57,628 bases of DNA from IMG/VR virus record IMGVR_UViG_3300038520_002118, positions 1 to 57,628 of that record. One strand, written 5' to 3'. The number at the start of each line of letters is the position of its first letter. The stretch's first letter is position 1. The notes beneath the pieces are model-generated. The model made no database searches, was not told the origin of the DNA, and saw nothing but the letters and a program-made list of their open reading frames with translations. The translations under genes and the position numbers were made by a program. This document shows, in pieces, positions 6,470 to 39,267 of this stretch. This stretch comes from a virus (taxonomy: Duplodnaviria > Caudoviricetes).

Positions 6470-9400
6470 ATGGCTTTTGATTTAAGTAGACTACGGACGG
6501 ATCAACTTCTCAAGCTTCAAGGTGTAGGCGGAGACCTCACCCAGCTAAGTACCGAAGAGCTAGAAGAACTCCTCGAATCTCAGGAAGAGATGAGTGATCT
6601 TGGCGCTGGCTTCCAGAGAGCAGGCGGCTCTTTCAGACAGGGCATTGCTGGGCTACTACGTGACATAGCTCCAGAGTACTCAGAAGAATTGTTCGAGTCA
6701 GGCGCTAGAGCTATTGAAGAAACACAGCGCCAGCGTACCCCAGACATTCCATCATTCAAAGACATCGAAGACCCTCTCGATCTTATCGAGTACACGGGTG
6801 AGCAACTAGCCACATCCCTACCTCAGCTCATCGCACAGCTCGGAACTGGTGCAGTCGCAACCAGATTGGGCGGTCCTAGGGTGGGCACCGCCGCCGCAAT
6901 CGGAGCCGGAACTCCATTTTTTACCGGCATGAATATTGAGCGCCAGATTCAAGAGCAAGGTATCGACTTCAAAGAAGCAGATGTCGCTAAGGCGTTTGGC
7001 GTATCCGTTGGTCAGTCTTCTCTTGATGCGCTGATCGGTCGTTACATAGGTGTGTTTGGTCCTGCCAAAGCGGGTGGCGAGATAGTCAAGGCCACAAAGG
7101 CAGGGCTTGGTAAAAAGGTTGCCAAGGGTGCCGCTCTTGGTGTTGCTGTAGAGGCGCCCACAGAAGCCGCTCAGCAAGCGCTTGAGATAATACAAGCAGA
7201 AAGCACCTTGAAGAATGGTCTTGACCGTTTAACGTCCATGCCTCCTGAGGTACAGGACGAGCTATTAGAAGCCTTGGTTGCAGGTGGGCTTGTCGGTGGA
7301 ACCATCGGTGGTGCCGCAGGGCCGTTGCGTCCAGATCCCCCTGACATTGCCAAACGTAGGGATCTCGAAGCACACCTCGCGGAGCTTCGTGATCAAGTCG
7401 CAGAAGATTCCCGAAATCTGGAGTTGTTCCGCGCTGAGGCCATAGAAAGGGGATTAATAATCCCCCCGGCGAGACGGCTCCCTCTTTTTGATGACTCTGA
7501 TATTGTTGTCGCGGCGCAGGAAAAACAAGCCGAGGCGATCAGGGAGCAGGAAGAAGCCGCTGTCGAGCAAGAACAAAGGCAACAAGATGCGGTCACCATC
7601 CTTGAGGCTGACAATGAACTGAAAGCACAAGAACAGCGGTTCAATGAACTGTATGAGCCATTGATAGGGAAGAAACTCGAAGAGATTGAGATTGCTGATA
7701 TTGAAAAGTTTGTTGCCAAGGACGATGCAGATCAAGCTCAGTTAGCAAGAGCCCTTGATGCTCTCCGTGCGTACAACACGCTGAAGGCTCAGCGGGCGAG
7801 AGCGGCTAAGGCAAGAGAGGCCAAGGCAAAGAAACGCCAAGCGCTCGAATTACAAAAGCAATCTGAAGAAGAGACCGTTGCGGCAAGAGAACTTGACGAG
7901 GCATCCGCTCAGCAGGCCAAGGTAAGGGAGGAGGTCCTACAAGACATTATTGGCTCAAGCCCAGATGTTGTTTCTGTTGGTAGTGAAGTTCAATTATTCC
8001 AGACAATACTGCGTAACGCAGGCATGGACCCAACTCTCACAGCGACAGAAACCCGTTTGATCGAGCGCAGGAAAGACTTCATTGATCCTCCCTTTGTCGA
8101 TACGAGGACTCCTGAGCAGACCAAGAAGGGCCAAGCAGTCGGTGTCCGCGAGAGCCTGAAGAGACTGACCTCTCTGCAATCACGTAGGCTGGCAGAAGCT
8201 AACGCAATTCAGATCAGAGCGAATGCCCAAGAGGCCATCAACCTAGGCTACACCCCCGAGTTTATGGACAGGGTCCGTAACATCGCCAAGTCCCTGAGAC
8301 AGGATCTATCAAAGATTGGGCTTGAGGACGTGGCGCTCAAGATAGGTGGTGCAGTCCAAGGTGACCCCAGTATCGAGGGCATGACTGACGTAGAGAAAGA
8401 TAGTGGCCGTGTTGCCATATCTCTAGCCGCACAGATTTACAATCCCCAAATGACTGACGAACAGCTCAAGGCGAAGCTAAAAGAAGTCATGAACCATGAG
8501 ACCATCCACGCTCTGCGTATGCTGGGTGTTCTGACAGAGCCTGAGTATCAGTCGCTGGTCAAGGTGGCTAAAGAGCAGGCGTTTGTTGATAGGTCAGGGA
8601 AGGTAAGACTGTTCTCATATTTTGAGAGAGCGCAAGAACTGTACGAAGGAACAGAGGCCCTCCAAGAAGAAGAAGCGGTAGCCGAGTTATTCCGTGACTG
8701 GGCCGCAGGCCGTAAGAAGATCGCAGGTAAGCCACTCAATCTATTCCAGAAGATCATCAAGTTCTTCAAGGGTCTTGGCAAGAGTCTTGACAGTGAACAG
8801 CTTGCTGACGCCAACCGAATCTTCCAGAGCATCGAGTCAGGAGAGATTGGTTCAAGGGTAAGGGACAGAAAAGGTGCAGATGCACTTTCTCCGATGCAGT
8901 CGAGAAGAGCGACAGCAGATTCACCTGCATTTTTCAATGCAACAAATAAGCAGATAGAACAGCTTATTGATCGATACGATTACCCATACGGCACTACAGG
9001 GTACGCTGTTCGTATGCCAATCGAGGACTTTATGTCGCTGACATACGGGGTGGGCAAGGTTAATAAGGCAGACGTCAAGCGTGTTGCCAAAGAATTCTTA
9101 GAGGATATGCCAAGTAACGACGGGTCCAGAATGTCAGATTTACAACCTGTGCAAAAAAGAGTTTTCGACACAGAATTAGACTCAGAAGCTTTTGCCGAGG
9201 CCCGCAGGCAGAGGGACCGCAGGAGGGCGCGAGGACTTGAGGTATCGGACGAGCAGTTTGCAAGATTCGACCCCGATAAAGTAGATAACCAGAACTACAT
9301 GGGTGTACCGTCTCTCAAAATAATAAAGGACATAAACATTCGGAAGATCATCGTAGATGGTCACGAGGGGAGACATCGCACTGCGTTGGCGGCAATTGAC

Positions 9401-12400
9401 GGGGCCGACACCATTCCTGTGCAGGTAGAGTACAAAGAATTCTACACTCTATACGATTCAGGAAGACTTTTCGGAACTATACCCCGTGGTCAGGATTTTG
9501 ATTTCGAGGGGCTTTCTGCAAAGAGAGATGTATTACAGCAGTATGCCGGTGAAGACTTTCCGTCCGTAGATGGCGAGTCATTCACAGCCACAATTCCTAA
9601 AGGAGTCCCCATCTTCTATAAATTCAGAGATGAATTAAATAAGCTGATCGGCCCCAAGTCTGACCCATTGTATCCAGATGATGCCGAAGGAACGGCAAAG
9701 CTCTCTAAGCGCATGACGCTCGATGAATGGTTGAAGAAATCTGCTATCAAAGAGCCGGTGTACCACGCAACCATTGATTCTTTCCCAGCTCTGAATCCTG
9801 ACGAGACGCAAGACAAGGCTGTGCATTTCGCCCCTGACATAGAGACTACAGATGGCAGGCTCGAAGAAATTTTCCAGCGTGAAGTCGTGCAGGAGCTGGA
9901 AGACGGGAAGGTAATGTTCCCCCGCAGGATCACAGCCAGAATTCAAATGAACAACCCCCTCAGACTGCCATTCGATCTTGGTAACTGGGGAGATGATAAC
10001 TTGTGGCGCTCTGCACTTGAGGATAACTCCTTCATGTTCACCCAGAGATATGGGAAAGAGCGCATGGCGAATATTATTGAGTCGCGCCCTGACATACAGA
10101 AGGTTAAGAAGAAGCTTGCCGAGTATAGGAAAGAATTCCCTAACGAGCCTCTTGATGCGGACACTATTTGGCTAGCCATAGATAGCTCTGGGTTTGATGG
10201 AATCATTTACACAAACATGGGTGAGGGATATGGCGCAGATTCCTATCTGGTGTGGAGTCCTAACCAGATATATGTAGAGGAGATCGAACCTCTCGACTAC
10301 GGTGACTTTGAGTTTGCCTTCCAGTTCGATGACCCCAAAGAAAGCATGACACCCGAAGAACTTGCTGAGGTTTCTACACGGCCAGTTATGGGACTTCAGG
10401 GTAGGTTCTTGAGTCAAGAAGATGTCGGGGAGTTAACAAGAGACAAAGATCTGTTTGACGAAAGGAAGCGGCAGTTCTCAGGTATCAAGGGGACTGAAGA
10501 GATCAGAGATCCTCAGCGGATGTTCTCTCGCAGAACTCCTGTTATTGCTGAAGACAATCCGTTCGACATAGACATGAATAGGACTACTCTTCCTTTGTAT
10601 CCAGATCCTGTAGTGGATGAGAACGGCAAGATTACAGGATACCGTCTAATAAACGGAGAGCAGTTCAAACCAAACTCTGTGAAACTCAAAGACGCTGTCG
10701 CATATCTTGGCCGCAAGGTATCTGATGTTCTGGGTACAACAGATAAGGTTCCTTACACAGATGACAACGTAGAGCCCCTCGCTAAGATCATGGCGACAGA
10801 GGCGGTCAAGGCGCTCGAATCAGACAACAACGCTATTGGCTGGTACGACAAGCAGTTACAAGCCGCAAAGAGAACACTCAGTCTAGTCGAGCCACGTATA
10901 TTCGAGACAGGCAGAGACGAGACAGCTTTCGATTGGGCGCTTGCTGTGACATCAAACGGGCAGGCAGTGACAGATAACTTTGCTTACGCACTTGAGGCGT
11001 TCCGTTTCTACAGAGATAAGGGTAGGTTCCCAGTAAAAGAATGGAAGAAAGGTGGGGACCGAAGGAATCAGATGCAGAGTGCTTTTGTTTTCTTCAATGA
11101 GTATCAGAAGCTGTACGAGGATGGTAGTGTTACCAAGCCAATCGATCAGTTCCTTGACTCACAGTTCACAGTGAAACAACTGCAAGCCGTAGTTGATGAT
11201 ATGAACCAGCGATTCAATACCAAGATCAGCGTCCCAGCGGACGAGCTTGTTGACACTGTGGTGTTCGGTTCATACATCGCAGGTCCCAAGATTGGACAAG
11301 GTTTCTATCAGAACTTGAGGGGTAACCTCGACCCACTCACGATGGATATCTGGTGGATGCGTATGTGGAACCGCTACGTCAATCGCCCTTTCGCAACAGA
11401 GGCAACGCCAGAACAGTTGAGAACACTGCGTGGCAAGATACGGGGCGTCATACAAAACAGTCGTGATGAGGTGATACAGGAAGTAGTGCAGGATGCTTTG
11501 CGGGTTACGGGCATACGCAAGTCCGACCTCCGAAACAACAAAACACTCGACCAGTTTATTCCTGCCCTGCGAAAATCATGGGACAGATACTTCAGGAAGT
11601 TCCAGAAAGAACAAGACCGCAACCCGATCAAGCCTCAATTATTCAAGGATGTGAAGACCCTCGAAGGCAAGCTCTACGGACAGATACAGGCCACGCCAAC
11701 AAATGGCACTGAACGCAACTACATGAGGCGTGTAACCAAGAAAGCACAGGGTTTATTGTCCTCAGTGGGGGTGGACATCGAGACTGCTGACTTACAGGCT
11801 TTGATGTGGTATCCTGAGAAACGTTTGTTCGAGGCCCTTGGTGTCCGCAAGGGAGCAGGACAAGATACAGACTATGCTCAAGCCGCATACGACCAAGCAA
11901 AACAGGAGGGGTATACAGATGAGCAAATCAATGAAGCACTCAGCGATCCAGAAAGAGGATACGTCAGTACTCGCACAGACCCCAGACAAGTTGATGAAAG
12001 AACTGATACTGGGACTGGACAAGCAAGACTCTCAAAAAGGTACAGTGCCTCAGACACAGCGAGACGTGTCGCCAACAGTGCAGGGGCTGATGGACAAGTA
12101 TGGGATGTCTCGCGACAAAGCAGAGGCGTGGACGGAAACAACGTAGTTGCGTCCTACTCAGTAAATAATCTTTTCGCGCCCATGTATCTCATGGGCGACA
12201 TCTCAACCCCAGTCGTTCACGAATTAGAACAGTCAGTATCCTCAGCGGAATACTTCAGATCAAAGATACAGCAGTCCAAGGATAGCAATCCTTACGGTGC
12301 CGCTGTGTATGTGTACCCCGTGATTACAGATCCAGACGATACAGGATATGCAGACATGCGTTTGTTTGTAACAGACGGCGGTAACGCAGGGTTTGCGCTG

Positions 12401-15400
12401 AAGGGCAATGACATTGTGAGCGTGTTCAACACGAGGGGTGGTGGCCTACGCAGTGTTTCGTATCCACTGGTGCGGCTTGCTATCGAACAGGGCGGCAGAA
12501 AGCTGGATGCGTTTGACACGATTCTACCTGAGATTTATTCAGCCAACGGCATGAAGACCGCATCCCGTTTGGTTTGGGACGAGAGACAACGTCCTGAGGG
12601 ATGGCGTGATAATGACTTCATTGAGTTCAACAAAGGGCAACCAGACGTTGTATTCATGTACTACGAGCCTCCTGCCACAGAGTACAAGCCTGACTCTGGG
12701 ACGTATGCTTTGGACTATGCAGAAGCACTTGAGATACAAGACAAGGCTGTACGCGGAATCAAAGACAGGGCTCCTGAAAAAAGTGCAGATGCACTTTCTT
12801 CTGACGGGCCTAATACAATCAGGTTCTCGAAGAGGTTTTCTTATACTGGTACGCCCAACCCTGCGGGCTTCTCATCATTCGTTGACAAAGTCATAGCGAA
12901 GGACGAATCAACAGGTCCCTTCAACGAATTCATGCGTAAGATGTTTGGCGCGGCCAAGGGTGAGACGCTACGAGAAGCGTTTGTACGCAACCATATTAGT
13001 AGGTTTAGTCCGGGCTATAAGCTCGATGATATCGTTTACGGAACGAGTTACAACAACCCTGATTCTGTTGGACGAGCAATGGAAATGTCTCAACAGGTTC
13101 TGGGCCGTATCTACGCACTCATGGAGTTCGGACCAATCAAGGTGGATGCTGACGGCAATGTCGAGCAAGTGTCCGAAGCAGGCGTCAAGGGGCTCAACGA
13201 GATATTCGCGCCACTGCTCGAAGGGCAGACACAGGCGCAAGCAAAAGAGAACGAGCGACAGTTCTATGCCTATGCAATTGCAAGAAGAGAGAAAGCATTG
13301 CGGGCTGTTGGGCGAAGAGGCTTCCAAAATTTAAGTGACGCAGAGATCGATAGGGCAATAGCCGCTGGCGACCCAGCGTTCCAAAAAGTATTCAACGACT
13401 ATCAGAACTTCAACAACTACATGGTTCAGTTCGGCAAAGACTCTGGCTTGTTGAATGATCAAATGGCCGAAGAGTTTGCCAACATGGCTTACGTACCATT
13501 CTATCGTTTGCTTGAGACAGCAGAGGGCGACACAGATTTCTCTAACTCCCTCCCACAGAGAGCGGCCAATAGTTTGATGCAGAAGGGAGCGTTTGATCGA
13601 GAGCTTGTGGGGAGTAACTTCCAAGTCTCGGGCGACTTACTCAAGAACATCTATCGTAATAACGAGATGATCATATCTGCTGGTCTGCGTAATATCGCAA
13701 TGCGTAAAACGTCTGAGGCATTAGAGAAGCTACAAGATCCATCTTGGGGAGAGAAAGCTGACCTCACGAAACCGCAAGGCAACGTCATGAAGTTCAGGGT
13801 CAATGGTGAGCAAGTCGGATATAAGATTCGGGACGGTGCACTGTGGCATGCACTGTCTGGTTTGACACCCCAACAGAAGGATGCATACATCAAAACGGCA
13901 GAGATGTTCGCAAATTTACTGCGAATCGGTGTCACAAATATGCCGGGGTTCATGGTGGCAAACCTTTGGCGTGGAAAAATCGATGCCTACATCAAAGCTG
14001 GTGTTCCAATTGGCTTAGGACCTAGGACATTGAGCCGCATGAACCAGTCCATGAAAGACGGCAAAGATGCAATGGCCATCAAACTTCTCACTGGATTCGG
14101 TGGGTATTCTTTCGGTGCAGATCCAGCAGACTTTGCTTCGACCGCAAGACGGCTTGGCAGAACTGGGGGCAGGATCATACAGAAGGACACACCTGTCGCG
14201 GCTGTCGCCACAGGGTTTAAGAACCTGCTTCAGAAAGTAGAACGATTCGGTGAGTCAACAGAGCTTGAGGTTCGTATCGGTCTGTACCAGAAACTTATTG
14301 CTGAGGGTGTGTCTGAAAGAGAGGCCGCATTCCAAGCGATGAACCTGATCAACTACGGTAGGAAAGGAGCCGGTGGTGGTATCACTGGACAACTACTGGT
14401 CAACCGACTTATCCCTGCAATCCCGTTCTTGAATGCACGTATCCAAGGTCTGTACCGTTTAGCAGAAGATCCAAGGCTACCAGCAGATGAGCGTCAGGCA
14501 TATTGGCAAGGGATAATGAATCGCGGACTTCTTGTGATGGCAGTCTCTACTGCGTTGGGTGCACTGGCGATGTCAGATGATCGCTGGGAGGAGGAGTCAC
14601 TACAGAATAAACTGAACTACGACATTATCTACATCGGTGATTCGGCGATTAAGATACCAAGAGCGTTCGAGCTAGGCGCTATATTCGGAACCTTCCCTGT
14701 ATTCGCGGTAGATGCAATCAGGCAGGAAGATGGTTCTGATTTTGCTATGGCAGTGGCTCACACATTGTTCAACACGTTTGCCTTCAACCCAATACCGCAG
14801 GGCGTGATGCCTGCGTTGGAGGTTGTGACGGGGTATGACTTCTTCAGGATGGCCCCACTAGAGGGCATGGCGCTACAAAGAAAAATGACATCAGACAAGT
14901 TCTATTCATCTACTCCGCATGTTTACCGATTCCTGAGCGAAGCTGGATTGGATAAGTTGACACTGAGCCCTCTAGAGATTCAACAGTTACTTGAGGGATA
15001 CATGGCAGGTCTAGCCACGATCCCAATAGCAATAGCTGAAAGCGTCATGTCTTGGACAGGCGCAGTGCCACAGAAGCCAAATGGCATATTCGGTAATCCA
15101 TATGTCACAGATTTTGGCAGGGTGCTTGGACTGGCAAGATTCATACAGAAAGATGGGGAGACTTCTAGCCAGTTTGTCAGAGACTTCTATGACCTCAGGC
15201 GCGAATCAGATGCTGTGTTCACATCCTATCGTGATGCGGCGGCTACAGGTGATCAGGATCGCATGAACGAGTTACTCGAAGATCGCGGTGTCGCTATGGG
15301 ATTCCGTAAGACGTTCAATCGTGTAGCAAAACAACTGACTGATATCAACAACGCCATGAATAGAATAGTCGAGAGTCCAACCATGTCGCCCACACAAAAG

Positions 15401-15484
15401 ACACAGCAACTCAGGCAACTCAGGATACAAAAGAATAAACTAGCAAGACGCATTGTTGAGCTGGCTGAGAAACAAGGTATATAA
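6470..15484 (+). CDS. Giant polyvalent internal virion protein (zincin-like peptidase, ParB-like, ART-like, HhH-like, GNAT-like, LPD38-like regions)
   Basis: 3004 aa; HETIH..EEEAVAE; IVDGHEGRHR; VYHAT..GFDGIIY..PNQI; GPKIG..TMDIWW..LQALMW; KLDAFD..PDVVFM; C-terminal KIPRAFELG..NPIPQ. Confidence 0.75.
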   Translation: MAFDLSRLRTDQLLKLQGVGGDLTQLSTEELEELLESQEEMSDLGAGFQRAGGSFRQGIAGLLRDIAPEYSEELFESGARAIEETQRQRTPDIPSFKDIEDPLDLIEYTGEQLATSLPQLIAQLGTGAVATRLGGPRVGTAAAIGAGTPFFTGMNIERQIQEQGIDFKEADVAKAFGVSVGQSSLDALIGRYIGVFGPAKAGGEIVKATKAGLGKKVAKGAALGVAVEAPTEAAQQALEIIQAESTLKNGLDRLTSMPPEVQDELLEALVAGGLVGGTIGGAAGPLRPDPPDIAKRRDLEAHLAELRDQVAEDSRNLELFRAEAIERGLIIPPARRLPLFDDSDIVVAAQEKQAEAIREQEEAAVEQEQRQQDAVTILEADNELKAQEQRFNELYEPLIGKKLEEIEIADIEKFVAKDDADQAQLARALDALRAYNTLKAQRARAAKAREAKAKKRQALELQKQSEEETVAARELDEASAQQAKVREEVLQDIIGSSPDVVSVGSEVQLFQTILRNAGMDPTLTATETRLIERRKDFIDPPFVDTRTPEQTKKGQAVGVRESLKRLTSLQSRRLAEANAIQIRANAQEAINLGYTPEFMDRVRNIAKSLRQDLSKIGLEDVALKIGGAVQGDPSIEGMTDVEKDSGRVAISLAAQIYNPQMTDEQLKAKLKEVMNHETIHALRMLGVLTEPEYQSLVKVAKEQAFVDRSGKVRLFSYFERAQELYEGTEALQEEEAVAELFRDWAAGRKKIAGKPLNLFQKIIKFFKGLGKSLDSEQLADANRIFQSIESGEIGSRVRDRKGADALSPMQSRRATADSPAFFNATNKQIEQLIDRYDYPYGTTGYAVRMPIEDFMSLTYGVGKVNKADVKRVAKEFLEDMPSNDGSRMSDLQPVQKRVFDTELDSEAFAEARRQRDRRRARGLEVSDEQFARFDPDKVDNQNYMGVPSLKIIKDINIRKIIVDGHEGRHRTALAAIDGADTIPVQVEYKEFYTLYDSGRLFGTIPRGQDFDFEGLSAKRDVLQQYAGEDFPSVDGESFTATIPKGVPIFYKFRDELNKLIGPKSDPLYPDDAEGTAKLSKRMTLDEWLKKSAIKEPVYHATIDSFPALNPDETQDKAVHFAPDIETTDGRLEEIFQREVVQELEDGKVMFPRRITARIQMNNPLRLPFDLGNWGDDNLWRSALEDNSFMFTQRYGKERMANIIESRPDIQKVKKKLAEYRKEFPNEPLDADTIWLAIDSSGFDGIIYTNMGEGYGADSYLVWSPNQIYVEEIEPLDYGDFEFAFQFDDPKESMTPEELAEVSTRPVMGLQGRFLSQEDVGELTRDKDLFDERKRQFSGIKGTEEIRDPQRMFSRRTPVIAEDNPFDIDMNRTTLPLYPDPVVDENGKITGYRLINGEQFKPNSVKLKDAVAYLGRKVSDVLGTTDKVPYTDDNVEPLAKIMATEAVKALESDNNAIGWYDKQLQAAKRTLSLVEPRIFETGRDETAFDWALAVTSNGQAVTDNFAYALEAFRFYRDKGRFPVKEWKKGGDRRNQMQSAFVFFNEYQKLYEDGSVTKPIDQFLDSQFTVKQLQAVVDDMNQRFNTKISVPADELVDTVVFGSYIAGPKIGQGFYQNLRGNLDPLTMDIWWMRMWNRYVNRPFATEATPEQLRTLRGKIRGVIQNSRDEVIQEVVQDALRVTGIRKSDLRNNKTLDQFIPALRKSWDRYFRKFQKEQDRNPIKPQLFKDVKTLEGKLYGQIQATPTNGTERNYMRRVTKKAQGLLSSVGVDIETADLQALMWYPEKRLFEALGVRKGAGQDTDYAQAAYDQAKQEGYTDEQINEALSDPERGYVSTRTDPRQVDERTDTGTGQARLSKRYSASDTARRVANSAGADGQVWDVSRQSRGVDGNNVVASYSVNNLFAPMYLMGDISTPVVHELEQSVSSAEYFRSKIQQSKDSNPYGAAVYVYPVITDPDDTGYADMRLFVTDGGNAGFALKGNDIVSVFNTRGGGLRSVSYPLVRLAIEQGGRKLDAFDTILPEIYSANGMKTASRLVWDERQRPEGWRDNDFIEFNKGQPDVVFMYYEPPATEYKPDSGTYALDYAEALEIQDKAVRGIKDRAPEKSADALSSDGPNTIRFSKRFSYTGTPNPAGFSSFVDKVIAKDESTGPFNEFMRKMFGAAKGETLREAFVRNHISRFSPGYKLDDIVYGTSYNNPDSVGRAMEMSQQVLGRIYALMEFGPIKVDADGNVEQVSEAGVKGLNEIFAPLLEGQTQAQAKENERQFYAYAIARREKALRAVGRRGFQNLSDAEIDRAIAAGDPAFQKVFNDYQNFNNYMVQFGKDSGLLNDQMAEEFANMAYVPFYRLLETAEGDTDFSNSLPQRAANSLMQKGAFDRELVGSNFQVSGDLLKNIYRNNEMIISAGLRNIAMRKTSEALEKLQDPSWGEKADLTKPQGNVMKFRVNGEQVGYKIRDGALWHALSGLTPQQKDAYIKTAEMFANLLRIGVTNMPGFMVANLWRGKIDAYIKAGVPIGLGPRTLSRMNQSMKDGKDAMAIKLLTGFGGYSFGADPADFASTARRLGRTGGRIIQKDTPVAAVATGFKNLLQKVERFGESTELEVRIGLYQKLIAEGVSEREAAFQAMNLINYGRKGAGGGITGQLLVNRLIPAIPFLNARIQGLYRLAEDPRLPADERQAYWQGIMNRGLLVMAVSTALGALAMSDDRWEEESLQNKLNYDIIYIGDSAIKIPRAFELGAIFGTFPVFAVDAIRQEDGSDFAMAVAHTLFNTFAFNPIPQGVMPALEVVTGYDFFRMAPLEGMALQRKMTSDKFYSSTPHVYRFLSEAGLDKLTLSPLEIQQLLEGYMAGLATIPIAIAESVMSWTGAVPQKPNGIFGNPYVTDFGRVLGLARFIQKDGETSSQFVRDFYDLRRESDAVFTSYRDAAATGDQDRMNELLEDRGVAMGFRKTFNRVAKQLTDINNAMNRIVESPTMSPTQKTQQLRQLRIQKNKLARRIVELAEKQGI
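8870..8889. repeat. Dispersed palindrome site 3, intragenic (core GTGCAGATGCAC)
   Basis: AAAAGGTGCAGATGCACTTT encoding RKGADAL. Confidence 0.75.
12779..12798. repeat. Dispersed palindrome site 4, intragenic (core GTGCAGATGCAC)
   Basis: AAAAAAGTGCAGATGCACTTT encoding EKSADAL. Confidence 0.8.
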
Positions 15485-15505
15485 AAAAGCCCCCATAAAG
15501 GGGGC
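15483..15505 (-). terminator. Intrinsic terminator at convergent junction
   Basis: GCCCCC-TTTAT-GGGGGC followed by T6 on the minus strand. Confidence 0.75.
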
Positions 15506-22534: not shown

Positions 22535-22572
22535 AAAAAAAAAGGCGCTCCAGTCGGGAAACCGGAGCGCCT
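22535..22572 (-). terminator. Intrinsic terminator of minus-strand early operon
   Basis: AGGCGCTCCGG..CTGGAGCGCC followed by T9. Confidence 0.85.
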
Positions 22573-23781: not shown

Positions 23782-23831
23782 CGGCCAGTCAGACCGAGCA
23801 TGTGCCCCGCAGGGCACATGGGCAGGTGACT
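23782..23831 (-). ncRNA. Repeated intergenic structured element, copy A
   Basis: AGUCA CCUGCC [CAUGUGCCC UGCG GGGCACAUG] CUCGGUC UGACU GGCCG. Confidence 0.75.
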
Positions 23832-24126
23832 AAGCATTGTTTGCCTGAGTCCGGTTTTCTTCTTTCCTTCTTTGGAATTCTTTCTTGGCGAACTCTCTTG
23901 CGGCATAGATACCCTCATCAGCATTCAGACCATCAGCTAGCTTTTCAGCTATCTTGGTCAGCTTGAGCCGTATGTCCAGCTCTTGCCTCGCAGTTCGGAA
24001 ATCGAACTCGTCTGTGTATACGATGCCTAAGATTCTTCTGACAGCGGCTTCATGTGCTTCCGCTTTCACGCCAAGGAATTCCTTCGGAGGGATCCCCATT
24101 CTGGTTAGCATGTCATTCATGTTCAT
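23830..24126 (-). CDS. Hypothetical protein
   Basis: ORF with GGAG RBS, stop abuts element A. Confidence 0.7.
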   Translation of the reverse strand: MNMNDMLTRMGIPPKEFLGVKAEAHEAAVRRILGIVYTDEFDFRTARQELDIRLKLTKIAEKLADGLNADEGIYAAREFAKKEFQRRKEENRTQANNA

Positions 24127-24367
24127 GATTTGTCTCCACTTTCACAACTTCGAAATCATCAGATACGTGGTTGAATACGAACCACTGAAGGCAGTCCTCG
24201 ACTGTGTAACAGTACAGCTTGGTCTGTTCATCATCGTTACAGTGGAGCACAGCATGTGCCTTGCTTGGGCCAGCTCCCGCTTGATAGAAATCATCCTCGA
24301 TGTCCCTGTAGGTTTCTACCTCATAGACATCGGCACGGATGATAGTTAGTCCTCTTGGTGTGCTCAT
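24113..24367 (-). CDS. Hypothetical protein
   Basis: Start MSTPRG after GAGGAG RBS. Confidence 0.7.
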   Translation of the reverse strand: MSTPRGLTIIRADVYEVETYRDIEDDFYQAGAGPSKAHAVLHCNDDEQTKLYCYTVEDCLQWFVFNHVSDDFEVVKVETNHEHE

Positions 24368-24392
24368 AGTATTTCTCCTCTTATGTTCACAA

Positions 24393-24448
24393 CGGTCTAG
24401 TGAGACCGATCCAGTGCCCGATACACAGACACTGGGGCAGGTCACTAG
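24393..24448 (-). ncRNA. Repeated intergenic structured element, copy B
   Basis: CUAGUGA CCUGCC [CCAGUGUCUG UGUAU CGGGCACUGG] AUCGGUC UCACUA GACCG. Confidence 0.75.
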
Positions 24449-24552
24449 AACTTCCATTTATCCTCATCATCAGAAAGCCAGAAGGCCACAAGGCCAACTG
24501 CGTAGACAAGGCAAATCAAAGCAACGGATGCAAAGCTGGTGTATTCAGTCAT
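24445..24552 (-). CDS. 35-aa single-TM protein (not in ORF track)
   Basis: MTEYTSFASVALICLVYAVGLVAFWLSDDEDKWKF; ATGA-coupled, stop abuts element B. Confidence 0.65.
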   Translation of the reverse strand: MTEYTSFASVALICLVYAVGLVAFWLSDDEDKWKF

Positions 24553-24824
24553 CTCGATGTACTCCAAGGATTAGTGGATTTATCCCTCATCTTTTTGAGG
24601 AACTCCTCACTGTAGGCGCTCTTGCGGTCTGCAACCATGCCTGACTCCTTCAGGTAATTGATAGCGTTAGTCAGCTCTTCAATATCCTGATGCATCTCAG
24701 CCACGGTGTCAGGGTCAGAGATCAAGTGAGTAACCTTGTAGGTCAGGTCATCTACGTGAGACACGCAGTTATCTACCAGTACTCGAATGGCGCTCTGGAT
24801 AGCGCCCTCATGAAGTTCGGTCAT
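24549..24824 (-). CDS. Hypothetical protein
   Basis: Start MTELHE after GGAG RBS. Confidence 0.7.
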   Translation of the reverse strand: MTELHEGAIQSAIRVLVDNCVSHVDDLTYKVTHLISDPDTVAEMHQDIEELTNAINYLKESGMVADRKSAYSEEFLKKMRDKSTNPWSTSR

Positions 24825-24836
24825 ATCATTCTCCAA

Positions 24837-24856
24837 AAAAGTTCATATGCACTTTT
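24837..24856. repeat. Dispersed palindrome site 9 (core GTTCATATGCAC)
   Basis: AAAAAAGTTCATATGCACTTTTT in short intergenic gap. Confidence 0.9.
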
Positions 24857-24864
24857 TGACATGG

Positions 24865-25998
24865 TCAGCTTACGCTGACCACATCTCCGAATGGTGCGGC
24901 TGTACCGCCAGTGGATACCCATAGCACCGGATAGTCAGGTGCCTGTGGGAAATCACCTACGTACAGGTCTGTGAAGTACACCATAGAATCGACAGGCAGG
25001 TTTTGCTCATCAATGTAATTGAAGGCAGGTGTGACCCGTGTGCCGCCACGGCCCTTGGCATTGAGTGACTCGATCACCTCACCCTCATAGTACGTAGTCA
25101 CAGACTGTACCTGAGTGTCGCAGGTGATGATCGTCACAGACGTTGGGCACATGTCCTCAGAGATCGCATTCAGCTCACTGAGATACATGTTCAGCTCTTC
25201 CTGCGAAACAGAACAGGAGGAGTCGATCACAGCCACGATGTTGCCCACACCATTGTGTTCGACACTGGGCATGTAAATGCCACAGGAGGCCAGCATCTTG
25301 CGATTGGGCTTCCGCATGGTGTAGTCATCAGGCTGATCACCTCCCACGAACAGACGCAACTTGTCACGCCAGTCAACCTTGTTAGTGGTCAACACATTGA
25401 CCAGTTCATCAAGGCCAGCGGGTATCTTGCCGATATTCTTGGCAGTGGTAGCGGCCTGCATGACCAGACGATTTGCCTGTGCCTCCATCTCCTCAAGCTC
25501 CTCGCCAGTAACAGGCTCACCGTCACTGTTGGTAGGTTGCTTGATATCACCGAACCTCCAGCCCTCGCCCTTAGGACGATCAGCAGTGTTCAGCAGGCGG
25601 GGATAGATTGCCTCAGCCGACATGCCTTTGTACTGCGGATCGAACAAACCCTCAGGCGGCATCTCCAAATCGCTGTCGATACAGATCTGGTTGATGGCAT
25701 AGTCAGTCGCCATGTTCCAGACCTCATGGTCACGTCCATCACACCGCATCGGATGCTTGAGTGCCACATGCATGATCTCATGCACAACCACGAACAGCAC
25801 CTGCTCGAAAGGGAGCCGCATGACAAAGTCAGGATTGTAGTCCACTGTCCTGCCATCGGTGCACATCGTAGGGATTGATGAGTCCTCAATGAACTGCATA
25901 CCCATAGCGATGGCGCCAAAGAATGGATGCTTGATCATCAAGCGGGTCTTGACCCGCGAGATGACGAACTGGGCATCCTGATTGAGTGCCTGAATCAT
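24865..25998 (-). CDS. DUF2201-family metallopeptidase + VWA domain protein
   Basis: TMCTDG, HEIMH (HExxH), D.AIN; MIDAS DSSCS, GRGGT, FTD. Confidence 0.9.
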   Translation of the reverse strand: MIQALNQDAQFVISRVKTRLMIKHPFFGAIAMGMQFIEDSSIPTMCTDGRTVDYNPDFVMRLPFEQVLFVVVHEIMHVALKHPMRCDGRDHEVWNMATDYAINQICIDSDLEMPPEGLFDPQYKGMSAEAIYPRLLNTADRPKGEGWRFGDIKQPTNSDGEPVTGEELEEMEAQANRLVMQAATTAKNIGKIPAGLDELVNVLTTNKVDWRDKLRLFVGGDQPDDYTMRKPNRKMLASCGIYMPSVEHNGVGNIVAVIDSSCSVSQEELNMYLSELNAISEDMCPTSVTIITCDTQVQSVTTYYEGEVIESLNAKGRGGTRVTPAFNYIDEQNLPVDSMVYFTDLYVGDFPQAPDYPVLWVSTGGTAAPFGDVVSVS

Positions 25999-27050
25999 GA
26001 TGCTTTCTCCTCGAGTACCAGAAGCTTCGCGTCACCAGTAAGCCAGTCACGCACCTCTTTGACATCGTGAGCCCACTTGCGGATCTCAGCCTTGCCATTG
26101 AGATTGACCACGGTCTTCATGGCGAACGCACTGTACTCCTGCGCTGGGATACGGTTGATGAACCGAACCAGATTGGCAGACGTGGACTTCTTGACCCGAT
26201 AGGCAAGGGATGCACACAGGGCATATGCCATTGCAGGCTCAGAAGGGATCTCAGCATTGTCTGGATCAGTGAACGGGGCATCGATGTCAGGCATCGCATC
26301 ACACATTTGCAGGTGCACCTCGAACATGGCCGTAGTGCCCTCACCCAGAGTCCCGCACAAAGCGATGTGCTGGGCCATTGGGCTCAGCTTCCAAGACAGG
26401 ATCTGGTGAGCCTTCTCCCAAGAGCGAGGGGATGGACATGCATTCACGTCCTTGTCGAACTTGGACAGGTGCTCAGGCTGGAAGCGCAGGAAGCTTAGGA
26501 TGCGATTGTCGATACCATTGGTTGCCATGTACTGGAGCGCATCATCAAGGTCAGGCACGATGGTGATGTGCAACAGACGATCCTTGAGGTGAGAAGGCAT
26601 GGCGTTGGTACCAGCACGATGGTGCATCTGGTTGCCAGCACAGACCACAGTCCAGCCGTCAGGCAGAACGTGCTCACCGATACGGCGCTCATTGACTAGT
26701 TGACCAATGATGTTCTGGTTGGCCACAGGAGCCTGTGGCAGTTCATCCACGAACAAGATACCGACACCCTCAGTGGGCAGATACTGTGGACGCAGACGGA
26801 TCATACGATCACCCTGAGCCCAAGGCAGACCGCCCAGCTCACCAGCGTCATACTGGTTGGCACGGAAGTCCATGAAGCTGATCCCCATGTCCTGTGCCAA
26901 AGCCTCGACAGATGCTGTCTTACCAGCACCAGCCACACCCCAAAGCATCGGGGTCACGTACTGGCTTGAACGGCCAGTCAATTGCTGATTTGCCAGAACA
27001 CTGGCGCGAACGATTTCCACAGCAGTGGATAGGTTTGTAGTTTGGTTCAT
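25995..27050 (-). CDS. MoxR/AAA_5-type AAA+ ATPase
   Basis: GVAGAGKT Walker A, ILFVDE Walker B, AGN sensor I, SPRSW. Confidence 0.9.
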   Translation of the reverse strand: MNQTTNLSTAVEIVRASVLANQQLTGRSSQYVTPMLWGVAGAGKTASVEALAQDMGISFMDFRANQYDAGELGGLPWAQGDRMIRLRPQYLPTEGVGILFVDELPQAPVANQNIIGQLVNERRIGEHVLPDGWTVVCAGNQMHHRAGTNAMPSHLKDRLLHITIVPDLDDALQYMATNGIDNRILSFLRFQPEHLSKFDKDVNACPSPRSWEKAHQILSWKLSPMAQHIALCGTLGEGTTAMFEVHLQMCDAMPDIDAPFTDPDNAEIPSEPAMAYALCASLAYRVKKSTSANLVRFINRIPAQEYSAFAMKTVVNLNGKAEIRKWAHDVKEVRDWLTGDAKLLVLEEKAS

Positions 27051-27071
27051 TGTTACTCTCCCATTGGAAAA

Positions 27072-27091
27072 AAAAGTGCACATGCACTTTT
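27072..27091. repeat. Dispersed palindrome site 10 (core GTGCACATGCAC)
   Basis: Between element C and RBS of AAA gene. Confidence 0.9.
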
Positions 27092-27092
27092 C

Positions 27093-27146
27093 CGGTCAGT
27101 CAGACCGATCATGCACACCACAGGGATGTGCATGGGCAGGTGACTG
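27093..27146 (-). ncRNA. Repeated intergenic structured element, copy C
   Basis: CAGUCA CCUGCC [CAUGCACAUC CCUGU GGUGUGCAUG] AUCGGUC UGACU GACCG. Confidence 0.75.
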
Positions 27147-27148
27147 GA

Positions 27149-27742
27149 TTAGTCATCAAGGGTATCGAGCATCGCGTCAACATCATCAGCGACAGCGTCA
27201 CCCCTTGCCTTTGCCGCCTCCTCAGCGGCCTTGTCCTCCTGCATCTCGCGGACTACCTCAAGCAGGCGATTGTACTCAGCCTCATCGAGCTTGAGGATTT
27301 GCTCAGCCAGCTTGTGGACCTTGTCCGCTTCAGGCTTGAACTTGTCAACCAGCTTGCCTTGTGAGGTGATACCAGCGGCATCCAGAGTCAGGGCGACAGA
27401 CACAGAGTCTGTGCACTCCATCAACTCAGGCATGACAGGCAGAAGCTTCTGCACGTTCTCTGAGTAACGCTTGACGTTGGAACCGGAGACACCGGCATCC
27501 TCAAGCTGTTGACGCAGAGCCTCCATGACCTTGACAGGAAGACCTTTCTTCTTGCCACGGCTGACCAGCTTGACGCCAGACACAGCGATGTCAGCAATGA
27601 TGTGCTGGTAGGCAGTCATGACCGCCTCCTGCCGCTCATTTGAAAGATCAGCCGCCTTGGCCTTGAGGCCTTGCTCCGCAGAGATAGCCTGTGCAATTTC
27701 AGTAGCTGAAGCGAGAGTGAATTGTACTTTTGAGTTTGCCAT
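27149..27742 (-). CDS. Hypothetical helical protein
   Basis: Start MANSKV after GGAGGG RBS; Ala-rich. Confidence 0.8.
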   Translation of the reverse strand: MANSKVQFTLASATEIAQAISAEQGLKAKAADLSNERQEAVMTAYQHIIADIAVSGVKLVSRGKKKGLPVKVMEALRQQLEDAGVSGSNVKRYSENVQKLLPVMPELMECTDSVSVALTLDAAGITSQGKLVDKFKPEADKVHKLAEQILKLDEAEYNRLLEVVREMQEDKAAEEAAKARGDAVADDVDAMLDTLDD

Positions 27743-27775
27743 GGGAAATCCCTCCATATTGGCTTGGTTTGAAAA

Positions 27776-27830
27776 CGGTCAGTGTGACCGATACAGCGCA
27801 CCACTGGGATGCGCTGAGGCAGGACACTGA
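27776..27830 (-). ncRNA. Repeated intergenic structured element, copy D
   Basis: UCAGUGU CCUGCC U[CAGCGCAUC CCAGU GGUGCGCUG] UAUCGGUC ACACU GACCG. Confidence 0.75.
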
Positions 27831-28061
27831 TTAGGCTATGACTCCCAGACCATCGCACTCTAGCGCCACGAATGTGAACGCCTTTGCGTCCGACAGTGTC
27901 GGGAAGATGCAGTACTCTGAGTAGGATGATCTCCAACCTTCTTGGTCAGACCCGTAAACGCCCGCCTTGTAGATTTCAAGACGGCCATTCGATGCGTCCC
28001 AGTCATGGTTGATGACCTCATAGATTCCTGAATCAATACGCTTGAGTTTGAGTGTTTTCAT
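27831..28061 (-). CDS. Hypothetical protein
   Basis: Start MKTLKL after GAGGAG RBS; FPTLSDAKAF motif. Confidence 0.7.
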   Translation of the reverse strand: MKTLKLKRIDSGIYEVINHDWDASNGRLEIYKAGVYGSDQEGWRSSYSEYCIFPTLSDAKAFTFVALECDGLGVIA

Positions 28062-28071
28062 GATTGTCTCC

Positions 28072-28392
28072 TCAGGAGTAGTCAGGTGTGACGATCTGTT
28101 CAGCCACAAGCGCCTTGATCACAGCGCTTTGAAGCTCATGACGAACCTTGTGGGCACTGGCAGAGACACGCTTACGGCCATAGCCATTTGGGTTCTTGAT
28201 AGTTGCTCCCCCCAGTTTGAAAGCGTGTTGGAAGTCCATCATCCCGTACTTAGCCTTTGGCTGAAAGCCATCATCAAAGGTGCCTGCAACCTGATAGGTG
28301 CGGCGATTGGGAAGAGTGACAACCGCATGGAAAGAAGTGAATCCTTCAAACGGCTTGAGCTCAGTGATGGTGGTTGATGCATAATCAGTCAT
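28072..28392 (-). CDS. Hypothetical protein (first gene of early operon)
   Basis: Start MTDYAS after GAGG RBS; the longer 203-aa track ORF lacks an RBS. Confidence 0.7.
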   Translation of the reverse strand: MTDYASTTITELKPFEGFTSFHAVVTLPNRRTYQVAGTFDDGFQPKAKYGMMDFQHAFKLGGATIKNPNGYGRKRVSASAHKVRHELQSAVIKALVAEQIVTPDYS

Positions 28393-28958
28393 GATAGTTT
28401 CCTCTGTGTTTCGCGGATACTGCCGCACATCAGTGACGCTGGTAGCGCCAGACACAAAGAGGCAGGCATTCCAACCCGCCTCGACACGAAAACCCCGAAC
28501 CAACTTGCAAGCGCTCAGGGTAGTTCCAACATTGACGAATGACTCAGTACAGGGCACTGCTGGTCTCACTTGGTCAGGGTCACCCCCCAACGCATCCGAT
28601 TCACACGATCTGCTTGCCAGCTTGGCACAGGCACCGCCTGTCACCGTCTCCCATCTCTCGCAGTTCCTGCGGGCGACAATCACACCGAAATGGGTAGCGT
28701 GATCGCTTGTAGCCGTTCTGCGTCAGGTCTGGTATGACCGATGGTCTGCCAGCTCACCGACTCGCCTGAAATGGCGTGGGCCTGTGTGGGAGTCCGTGAT
28801 GTCCACTGAGTGGAGGCATCAGGGCTTGGCCATGGCCAGCATAGGATCGCTCCACTAAGCTGGTTGGTCAGTCAACATAGGATCGCTCCACTAAGCTGAA
28901 TGACCGGCCCTCTCCGGCCCAAGGTGCGAATCCCAGATCGGGTAGAGCACCTTTCGAT
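28393..28958 (-). ncRNA. Candidate large structured leader RNA (~565 nt)
   Basis: Promoter upstream, no credible ORF, about 10 hand-paired hairpins, tandem GCGA-loop hairpins, 8-bp loop pseudoknot. Confidence 0.55.
28840..28898. repeat. 23-bp perfect direct repeat x2
   Basis: CATAGGATCGCTCCACTAAGCTG at 28840-28862 and 28876-28898. Confidence 0.95.
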
Positions 28959-37849: not shown

Positions 37850-38758
37850 ATGGCTATTACTCGCGCCCAACTCCTCAAGGAGTTATTACCGGGCCTTAAT
37901 GCATTGTTTGGTCTTGAGTACGACAAGTATGAAGACGAACATGCAGAGATCTATGAAACAGAAAGTTCAGAGCGTTCTTTCGAGGAAGAAGTTAAGCTCT
38001 CAGGCTTCGGTGCCGCACCGGTCAAGCCAGAGGGAAGTGCGATTTCCTACGATAATGCTCAGGAATCTTTCACTGCTCGTTACAACCACGAAACAGTTGC
38101 GATGGGTTTCTCCATTACTGAAGAGGCAATGGAAGACAACCTGTATGACGCCCTGTCTGCTCGGTACACAAAAGCACTTGCTCGCGCAATGGCTTACACC
38201 AAGCAAACAAAAGCGGCTTCTCTGCTGAACACAGGTTTCGACACATTCCAATCTGGGGATGGCGTAACTCTGTTCAACACAGCGCACCCAACTGTTGCTG
38301 GCGGTAACAACCGTAACCGTCTTTCTACAGACTCTGACCTCAATGAGACTTCTCTTGAGCAGGCTGTGATCGACATCGCGGCTTTCACGGATGAGCGTGG
38401 TCTTCTGATCGCGGCACGTCCTCGTAAGCTGATTGTTCCACCTGCATTGATGTTCGTTGCAACTCGTTTGCTCGAATCAGAACTGCGTACCGGAACAGCC
38501 GACAACGACACAAACGCATTGCGTAACAATGGGTCCATCCCAGAGGGATATCGCGTCAATCACTACTTGACTGACAGCGATGCCTTCTTCTTAGTGACAG
38601 ACGTTCCTAACGGAATGAAGCACTTTGAGCGTACTCCAATGCAAACGTCTATGGACGGTGATTTTGATACTGGCAATGTTCGCTACAAAGCTCGCGAGCG
38701 TTACAGCTTCGGCGTCTCAGACCCACTAGGAATCTTCGGATCGCCCGGTGCGTCTTAA
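37850..38758 (+). CDS. Major capsid protein
   Basis: MAITRAQLLKELLPGLNALFG..KLIVPP..ERYSFG; followed by strong terminator. Confidence 0.88.
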   Translation: MAITRAQLLKELLPGLNALFGLEYDKYEDEHAEIYETESSERSFEEEVKLSGFGAAPVKPEGSAISYDNAQESFTARYNHETVAMGFSITEEAMEDNLYDALSARYTKALARAMAYTKQTKAASLLNTGFDTFQSGDGVTLFNTAHPTVAGGNNRNRLSTDSDLNETSLEQAVIDIAAFTDERGLLIAARPRKLIVPPALMFVATRLLESELRTGTADNDTNALRNNGSIPEGYRVNHYLTDSDAFFLVTDVPNGMKHFERTPMQTSMDGDFDTGNVRYKARERYSFGVSDPLGIFGSPGAS

Positions 38759-38811: not shown

Positions 38812-38821
38812 CATCCTGACA

Positions 38822-38841
38822 AAAGGTGCATGTGCACTTTT
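38822..38841. repeat. Dispersed palindrome site 14 (core GTGCATGTGCAC)
   Basis: AAAAGGTGCATGTGCACTTTTT after terminator. Confidence 0.9.
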
Positions 38842-38868
38842 TGACACTGGCCAAGACAGGAGATTTTC

Positions 38869-39267
38869 ATGGCTAATACAACTTTTAGTGGAGCAGTCCG
38901 CTCCGAAAACGGATTTGTATCTGTAACAAAGAACGCAACCACAGGGGCGTTCACAACAGGTACCACATATTCAGATATCATCACAGGTAGCGTTCAGTCA
39001 TTGTCTGGCGCTGGCGCAGTCAACATTACTGATCTGATCACAGAGGTGACCACTACCGGAGCAAACGCACTGACGTTAGCTAATGGCGCCACAGGGCAGG
39101 TTAAGATCATCACAATGGTCACTGATGGTGGTGATGGAACCCTCACTCCAACAACTCTTGCTGGCGGTACAACCATCACGTTCAATGACGTTGGAGATGG
39201 TGTTGTGCTTGTTTACGGTTCAGCAGGCTGGGTGGTTGTAGGAAACAACGGCGCTACGATTGCGTAA
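38869..39267 (+). CDS. Putative virion structural protein
   Basis: MANTTFSG start, T/G-rich beta composition. Confidence 0.65.
   Translation: MANTTFSGAVRSENGFVSVTKNATTGAFTTGTTYSDIITGSVQSLSGAGAVNITDLITEVTTTGANALTLANGATGQVKIITMVTDGGDGTLTPTTLAGGTTITFNDVGDGVVLVYGSAGWVVVGNNGATIA

Follow-up and report, generated by a model that had tools for sequence, protein, structure and literature searches.

To date only some ten natural classes of self-cleaving ribozyme have been described, and the last three came from conserved RNAs lying beside hammerheads or twisters in phage-like DNA. Association with known ribozymes was the heuristic behind the discovery of pistol and hatchet, and a 2015 study (RAGATH) of RNAs near twister- and hammerhead-associated genes is said to have yielded pistol, hatchet and twister-sister. 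Protein enzymes also cut at such places: ribonuclease (RNase) III cuts intercistronic sites of the T7 early operon, and RNase P cuts the 4.5S RNA precursor. Tandem hammerheads that flank genes in phage-like polycistronic RNAs do cleave, both in vitro and in vivo (Perreault et al. 2011, PMC3088659), and a 2019 review (PMC6765202) calls the purpose of hammerheads in polycistronic transcripts undefined. Here we describe an intercistronic motif that occurs four times in IMG/VR virus record IMGVR_UViG_3300038520_002118, whose 57,628 bp are the complete virus record and are called the window below. The motif constitutes a family of structured RNA not described before, has a functional link to hammerhead ribozymes, and is probably a new RNA-cutting or RNA-processing element, as predicted from its sequence and placement. 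We read it as a previously undescribed cis-acting mRNA-processing module of about 56 nucleotides (nt), for which a new self-cleaving ribozyme would be the likeliest identity, at a little under an even chance.

A search of the window with the pattern CCTGCC-N15-35-TCGGTC-N4-8-CCG, which leaves out the outer 5' strand (X), gave four matches, every one on the minus strand (23782-23826, 24393-24441, 27093-27140 and 27776-27823), and none in 100 dinucleotide-preserving shuffles; no fifth copy was found across the whole window. A sequence-only reading of this DNA had pointed to four minus-strand copies at these sites, which our search bears out, although their 5' ends extend 1-4 nt beyond the limits proposed there once X is included. 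The copies are as follows.

27776 to 27831, minus strand: motif copy 1, between an open reading frame (ORF) of 76-92 amino acids (aa; stop TAA 27833-27831) and a 202-aa gene (family F0)
27093 to 27148, minus strand: motif copy 2, between the 202-aa gene (stop TAA 27151-27149) and a MoxR-like AAA ATPase gene
24393 to 24449, minus strand: motif copy 3, after a small ORF (TAG 24447-24445, within X) and before an ORF with ATG 24366
23782 to 23834, minus strand: motif copy 4, after a 98-aa ORF (TAG 23832-23830, within X) and before a 330-aa ORF (ATG 23755)

Each copy had been described as beginning at or just after a stop codon. There is indeed a stop at X in all four, with TAA touching X or just preceding it in copies 1 and 2; in copies 3 and 4, however, TAG sits inside X. 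The distance from the 3' terminal GRCCG to the next ribosome-binding site (RBS) is 13-30 nt in the window copies, close to the 15-30 nt first proposed.

As minus-strand RNA each copy folds into a single interrupted hairpin, with minimum free energies (MFE) of -25.0 to -30.2 kcal/mol and z of -3.7 to -4.3 (copy 1, -25.8 kcal/mol, z -4.15; copy 2, -25.0 kcal/mol, z -3.71; copy 3, -30.2 kcal/mol, z -4.15; copy 4, -28.7 kcal/mol, z -4.26). Reading inwards in the window copies, X and its partner X' form helix P1 (6-8 bp), followed by a bulged C, a 3-bp CUG/CGG helix with a U.G pair, a 2x2 loop (CC/NU) and helix P2 (9-10 bp), which is closed by a loop of 4-5 nt; a UC bulge lies on the 3' side. The complementarity of X and X' and the fully paired central hairpin with a different sequence in each copy, both proposed in the sequence-only reading, are seen in the aligned copies, as is the restriction of non-canonical pairs to G.U on the minus strand. 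The CUG/CGG helix had been missed there; since it appears in the MFE fold, the whole element is one interrupted hairpin. Plus-strand folds of the copies are strong too (z -2.4 to -4.4), so that folding energy alone cannot choose the strand.

Relatives were found through the ATPase gene:

25995 to 27083, minus strand: MoxR-like AAA ATPase gene, likely start ATG 27050, the anchor for finding relatives

A covariance model (R1) built from the four window copies, which score 79.4, 80.5, 74.2 and 67.6 bits (copies 1 to 4), was applied to the window and to the surroundings of ATPase homologues at 80 loci (numbered with the prefix L). It gave 40 matches in the 81 sources, every one on the ATPase-sense strand. 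They are confined to the window, to relatives 99% identical to it (L124, L129-L132) and to five loci whose ATPases are 50-55% identical to that of the window (L133, L135, L138, L139 and L141), with 1-5 copies per locus in the relatives that carry the motif; loci with 43-50% ATPase identity gave no match to R1. A tighter pattern matched 10 viral loci of the same clade, 26 metagenome loci and 8 cellular-genome loci, and 13 of 25 metagenome and viral loci scored 39-79 bits with the model (L232 and L240 were omitted from this search as likely duplicates). We rejected the eight cellular matches as members: they score at most 29.6 bits, are without P2, and most apparently lie in coding sequence. One motif-like sequence of 29.6 bits lies upstream of an RBS on the contig of an alphaproteobacterial metagenome-assembled genome (L244:3290-3337, minus strand); it keeps X/X', CCUGCC, UCGGUC and GACCG, its P2 is poor and no tRNA is nearby. 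Similar cases are L222:7554-7601 and L238:944-991. A loose-pattern scan of viral contigs, which matched at least 119 loci, left, after a structure filter, no real copy beyond the window's own loci among the matches listed; blastn of the region against a phage GenBank collection gave no match, and a second model (R2), run on 78 sources, found no diverged members.

An alignment (A6) of 52 matches, 39 of them distinct, from this phage, a few relatives and marine metagenome contigs was used for the statistics. Five metagenome loci at or below 30 bits (L222, L238, L230, L231 and L234) were omitted from A6 and from the 39-row counts; also omitted were the metagenome loci L224, L227, L228, L229, L235, L239 and L242, which gave no match at E<=0.01, and three chance rows with E of 2.8-7.2 (window:29624-29653, window:32969-33001 and L130:5056-5085). 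Counts from A6 are of sequences, not of independent events, and A6 was fitted to the model, which favours structure; the raw sequences nonetheless show the complementarity directly. Among the 39 distinct copies 97.4% of the 760 cells are paired, and 15 of the 20 pairs show changes on both sides. The observed pairing, double changes and covariation score were reached by 0 of 500 shuffles, and pairing falls to 26-34% when the partner is slid by 1-3 columns. There are 101 G.U pairs (62 without the invariant core U.G) against 4 A.C; the fold is therefore under selection as RNA of the sense strand. These results confirm that the motif is a structured sense-strand RNA with real covariation.

P2 varies across the family (9-14 bp), and its loops range from 4 to 9 or more nt and differ in sequence. 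The unpaired core is near-invariant: C10 (38 of 39 distinct copies), C14 (37), C15 (38), U63 (37), and U67 and C68 (39 each). The U12.G65 wobble is kept in every distinct copy while the surrounding stems vary freely. A change of C14 to U accompanies U63 to C in two rows of one lineage, a single event that would preserve the opposition of two pyrimidines.

The same operon is punctuated in relatives by type II and type III hammerheads. At the Rfam gathering score 5 of 11 loci have hammerheads, nine in total and each of them on the operon strand; a regular expression for the core strands added others below the Rfam cut-offs, marked here as regex calls. Three of the five loci with Rfam-scored hammerheads (L133, L135 and L141) also have the motif, in the same operon and on the same strand, and the two elements likewise occur together in L218, L221, L236 and L237. 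When ORFs were clustered across 10 loci, the slot 5' of the 202-aa gene was found to hold the motif in four (window, L124, L130, L138) and a hammerhead in six (L141, L135, L134 and L136 at the gathering score; L133 and L148 by regex only), and the slot 5' of the ATPase gene the motif in seven and a hammerhead in three (L134 by Rfam; L136 and L148 by regex). Because L124 and L130 are near-identical to the window, these counts overstate the number of independent lineages, and several more distant relatives have no element upstream of the ATPase gene. The window itself carries a hammerhead homologue:

28406 to 28455, minus strand: type III hammerhead homologue with core CUGAUGU, upstream of a 106-aa ORF with ATG 28392

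In an alignment with the type III hammerheads of L133, L134 and L135 its stem I covaries, and its core has U where the relatives have the last A of CUGAUGA; the Rfam scan does not detect it. After a shared upstream flank (about 90% identity) the window and L133 have this type III hammerhead and L138 has the motif, followed in the window and L138 by a homologous gene. Motif and hammerheads interchange at three orthologous slots in all. A 203-aa ORF with a GTG start (28072-28683, minus strand) overlaps the hammerhead homologue; the gene there probably starts at ATG 28392, giving 106 aa.

The motif is therefore associated with known self-cleaving ribozymes and exchanges with them. It shares with the tandem type II and III hammerheads of phages and prophages the operon, the strand, the intergenic slots and the occurrence in multiple copies, sometimes in tandem, and each of the two elements starts at, or within, the stop codon upstream and finishes shortly before the next RBS. 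The motif differs from a hammerhead in being a single rod with a pyrimidine-only unpaired core and without three-way junction, CUGANGA or GAAA. In L135 one motif copy lies amid three hammerheads, which suggests that the element probably needs no dedicated phage partner. Taken together, the swaps, the coexistence with hammerheads and the lone copy in L135 make it most likely that both elements perform the same service, the cutting of polycistronic RNA. The hammerheads in the same slots of relatives thus lend strong circumstantial support to processing or self-cleavage, as far as sequence comparison can show. The association is unusually clean because the motif replaces hammerheads at the same junctions between near-identical flanks, and this makes it a cheap and well-defined candidate for bench tests.

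In ten more distant relatives the Rfam scan gave no matches. Hammerhead-like strings of the form GCUAYCUGAUGAG-hairpin-CGAAAC occur in such relatives at L183:3177, L184:6166, L187:150 and 916, L191:1243, L192:1187 and L197:2590; they are possibly divergent hammerheads, and those of L184, L187 and L191 have no Rfam match at the gathering score.

A resemblance to hammerheads is also found within the motif. X together with the bulged C reads GUGUC in 11 of the 39 copies and CUGUC in 2, as do the 5' strand and cleavage-site C of the relatives' type III hammerheads, and the three bases that come next, CUG, match the hammerhead core too. One may see in the motif a type III hammerhead that has lost stem I and had its core replaced, in which case the cleavage site would fall after C10. 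This is a lead only, because 22 of 39 copies read GUCAC. The same strings could be taken to mean that the motif is a decayed relic, a type III hammerhead minus stem I with a remodelled core, kept as a stable hairpin. We consider this quite improbable: besides the GUCAC copies, an invariant core unlike that of hammerheads, present at 1-5 copies per locus, indicates a selected function rather than decay, and the common outer helix may reflect microhomology used in the swaps.

The 3' end of the motif offers a second structure. A CGGUC/GRCCG hairpin with X' as its loop is found in all four window copies, as had been noted, and in 37 of 39 rows the tail G-R-C/U-C-G can pair with CGGUC. The sequence-only reading had left this as either a pseudoknot or a two-state switch. 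We favour the two states: X' is the whole loop of the second hairpin, with zero linker between it and GRCCG, and CUG/CGG competes for the same CGG, so that a full X/X' pseudoknot is sterically unlikely and was rejected. Furthermore, copy L141:7076 has the core CUUG...CGAUC...GAUCG, in which the change in CGGUC is matched in both the CUG strand and the tail. Both CUG/CGG and CGGUC/GRCCG, though mutually exclusive, therefore appear to be selected, and a two-state element fits this better than a pseudoknot. State A (P1 with CUG/CGG) is 3-6 kcal/mol more stable than P2 with the 3' hairpin (state B); on its own, the 3' fragment reaches -6.1 to -6.8 kcal/mol. As state A is complete before the tail is transcribed, state B should form only once state A has been broken. 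Tandem motif pairs at L133:4947-5114 and L225:1107-1272 have a conserved spacer of about 55 nt, and in them the first copy ends in GGCCA instead of GRCCG. Directly 3' of GRCCG, many copies in relatives show a short conserved string, CUUUGAAAC or GUUUCAAAU (e.g. L217:248, L226:1661 and L236:3946).

These features suggest the following scheme. The element would be transcribed within a leftward polycistronic replication/recombination operon and would fold co-transcriptionally into state A, with P1, the bulged C, CUG/CGG with its U.G pair, the CC/NU loop, P2 and the UC bulge. Self-cleavage would then take place inside the invariant pyrimidine-rich core, which would make the motif a new class of small ribozyme. 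Once P1 and CUG/CGG were lost, by cleavage or because a ribosome ended translation at the stop in X, the 3' half could refold into state B, and the CGGUC-X'-GRCCG hairpin may cap the 5' end of the downstream mRNA some 13-30 nt before the RBS. More specifically, though at clearly less than even chances, the motif might be the simplest natural self-cleaving fold, a rod in which a 3-bp helix with an invariant U.G pair is flanked by two tiny loops made up of pyrimidines, perhaps derived from a hammerhead and with a built-in switch.

Self-cleavage is favoured by the association with known ribozymes and by the strictly conserved core with its invariant U.G. Several observations weigh against it or against the scheme above. 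The fold is a simple rod, and the conserved unpaired bases are all pyrimidines, with no conserved unpaired G or A, while most known nucleolytic ribozymes use conserved unpaired purines. Two of the 39 copies end in GGCCA and lose one pair of the state B hairpin, for which the covariation comes from one lineage (L141:7076), the rest being conservation. The family is small and limited to one narrow phage clade, so that conservation partly reflects shared ancestry and copy-to-copy recombination. Terminator-like hairpins follow motifs but no inspected hammerhead slot, and cleavage leaves them unexplained. An interrupted helix of 20 bp suits an RNase specific for double strands equally well. Finally, guilt by association has also led to RNAs that are not ribozymes, such as RAGATH-18, which has turned out to be a TnpB guide RNA (PMC11061315).

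The main rival explanation is a processing signal for host ribonucleases, with RNase III acting on the hairpin of about 20 bp as the first candidate and RNase P acting on the hairpin with its R-C-C as the second. Cutting would part the cistrons and the leftover hairpins would stabilise the products. P1 (6-8 bp), CUG/CGG (3 bp) and P2 (9-14 bp) stack to about two helical turns with small loops (1x2 and 2x2), which is a feature of RNase III sites; the element is intercistronic and starts at stop codons; the tail after P1 is always R-CC-G/A; and such a site could replace a hammerhead without a new phage gene, in keeping with the slot swaps. The RNase III signals of the T7 early genes are likewise repeated intercistronic hairpins of about 55 nt, with conserved internal-loop sequence and variable stems. 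The motif differs from them in its stricter core, in an additional conserved 3' segment that makes an alternative hairpin, and in replacing ribozymes. The sequence specificity of RNase III is weak, and some 13 invariant core positions amid fully diverged stems exceed what would be expected of its sites. As to RNase P, the tail of L141:7076 (AUCG) changes together with CGGUC to CGAUC, which points to RNA-RNA pairing and not to recognition of CC. We regard processing by host enzymes as possible, if on the unlikely side.

Comparison with described RNA classes returned no assignment, in line with the first reading. No Rfam 15 family matches the four copies at its gathering score, and relaxing to E<=10 adds only a chance-level alignment to a hepatitis delta virus (HDV)-like model. 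The hammerhead models (clan CL00010) gave nothing on the four copies at either threshold, in the same scan that detects the nine hammerheads of relatives. A three-way junction with CUGANGA and GAAA strands is absent, the motif being C-CUG-CC / NU-CGG-UC with two helices at the core. The models of twister, twister-sister, pistol, hatchet, hairpin and HDV-like ribozymes gave no match at the gathering score. A superficial likeness to twister had been remarked upon; the motif shares the short strings CUGCC and CGGUC with a twister sequence, but it is without a second hairpin or pseudoknot partner, and no twister model scores even at E<=10, so the likeness does not hold up. The HDV-like fold was rejected as well: HDV-F-prausnitzii scores 10.3 bits (E 7.6) against a gathering score of 44, with six non-pairs, and the chance alignment lays CGGUC-loop-GACCG over P4 of the model, while the P1 and P2 of HDV cannot form. 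The invariant G.U wobble and the conserved C residues do recall HDV chemistry. Like the present motif, the RAGATH motifs are structured RNAs found through hammerhead association in phage-like DNA; neither they nor pistol, hatchet or twister-sister match in Rfam 15, a comparison that covers deposited models. A literature search found no paper describing the motif, though a description confined to a supplement or unpublished remains possible.

A further explanation is that the motif is bound by a protein and not cut, acting as a translational operator or coupling device that the ribosome ending in X would switch, as a put/nut-like antitermination element by which RNA polymerase would get past the terminator-like hairpins, or as a passive stabiliser hairpin. 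The terminator-like hairpins bear on it:

27066 to 27092, minus strand: terminator-like hairpin directly 3' of motif copy 2, with an A-tract, GUGCA-UG-UGCAC and U8
24835 to 24857, minus strand: terminator-like hairpin AAAAAGUGCAUAUGAACUUUUUU, without an adjoining motif

Such a hairpin directly follows the motif in 12 of the 39 distinct copies, and its stem covaries in relatives (GUGCA/UGCAC, GUUCA/UGAAC, CUGCA/UGCAG). A regulatory class would be the natural home for that arrangement, although 27 of 39 copies have no terminator behind them. An invariant internal-loop core within variable stems is typical of hairpins recognised by proteins, the stop codon lies in or adjoins X in all four window copies, and two nearly isoenergetic states could serve as a switch. 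A pure binder, however, would not be expected to replace RNA-cutting hammerheads slot for slot, and a dedicated phage regulator is hard to square with the single copy kept in L135. The nut site is a conserved boxB hairpin loop with boxA, and put is a two-stem fold; in the motif, a single rod whose P2 loops are variable, neither a boxB-type conserved loop nor a two-stem put fold was found. No segment of the element pairs with the downstream RBS, as a translational operator might, and nothing in the analysis favours an operator or put/nut-like antitermination. Anti-Shine-Dalgarno mimicry, or sequestration of the RBS, was dropped after the sequences downstream of the copies had been read. Binding without cutting seems improbable to us. 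Elsewhere in the window, strong terminator-like hairpins on the minus strand lie within the leftward operon between 22.5 and 22.6 kb (22543-22572, 13 bp and a U-run) and at its end (15489-15505, 6 bp and a U-run).

The copies may also mark recombination. The copy before the 202-aa gene in L124 and L130 is a hybrid, joining the 5' flank and P2 found at L138:3237 to the 3' flank found at window copy 1; the corresponding two copies of L138 enclose one extra gene, and the hammerhead homologue and copy 1 of the window enclose two. The hybrid is best explained by a crossover in the shared 3' core (AUCGGUCACACUGACCG) that would have deleted a gene cassette. Copy 1 is identical in sequence to L215:4175-4230 and to L138:3695-3750, although the ATPases of the window and L138 are only 51% identical. 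A 275-nt contig from a marine run matches 26971-27145, is then unlike the window for 97 nt, and splits from it inside X of copy 2; with its low depth it is weakly consistent with a relative that has a different upstream cassette. These observations could be read as a role of the motif in DNA, as a conserved boundary at which gene cassettes are shuffled, a homology-cassette idea raised in the sequence-only reading, or as an inverted repeat bound by a protein. The excess of G.U over A.C (62 to 4) and the covariation of the stems without sequence identity point to selection of a single-stranded fold of the sense strand, and the copies placed relative to the ATPase gene all lie on that strand. Cassette shuffling, which the hybrid copy supports as a side effect, is excluded as the primary selected function by the strand-specific covariation, and a DNA-level role altogether appears very unlikely.

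What is new here is that the motif and hammerheads interchange at orthologous intergenic slots of one operon. Should the motif prove to be self-cleaving, it would add a new and very small catalytic fold; should host RNases cut it, phages would freely exchange ribozymes and nuclease sites, which, if true, would be relevant to the debated purpose of hammerheads in phages. Either way the motif marks cistron boundaries in abundant marine podovirus-like phages, and these boundaries are recombination points for gene cassettes.

The closest isolates by terminase are the Pelagibacter phages HTVC027P (57%) and HTVC023P (52%), and the closest match to the MoxR-like ATPase is from Roseobacter phage CRP-7 (36%). 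The early region of HTVC027P has another gene order and is without the ATPase operon. In the window all four motif copies lie in the leftward, minus-strand operon that runs from about 31 kb to 15.5 kb and encodes the MoxR-like ATPase, a DUF2201 metallopeptidase/VWA protein, a PD-(D/E)XK nuclease and a Sak-type annealing protein; the operon is plausibly an early one.

24865 to 25998, minus strand: DUF2201 metallopeptidase/VWA-like gene of the same operon

Beyond the operon, a 3004-aa ORF on the plus strand (6470-15484) matches PHROG families of unknown function over its C-terminal 700 residues and shows a weak match to a virion structural protein at its N-terminus; it may be a giant injected or virion protein. 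The sole Rfam match in the window is a Mu-gpT-DE RNA at 38814-38871 (plus strand; 50.2 bits against a gathering score of 49), whose 3' end is the ATG of an ORF at 38869 and which has a 302-aa ORF (37850-38758) just upstream.

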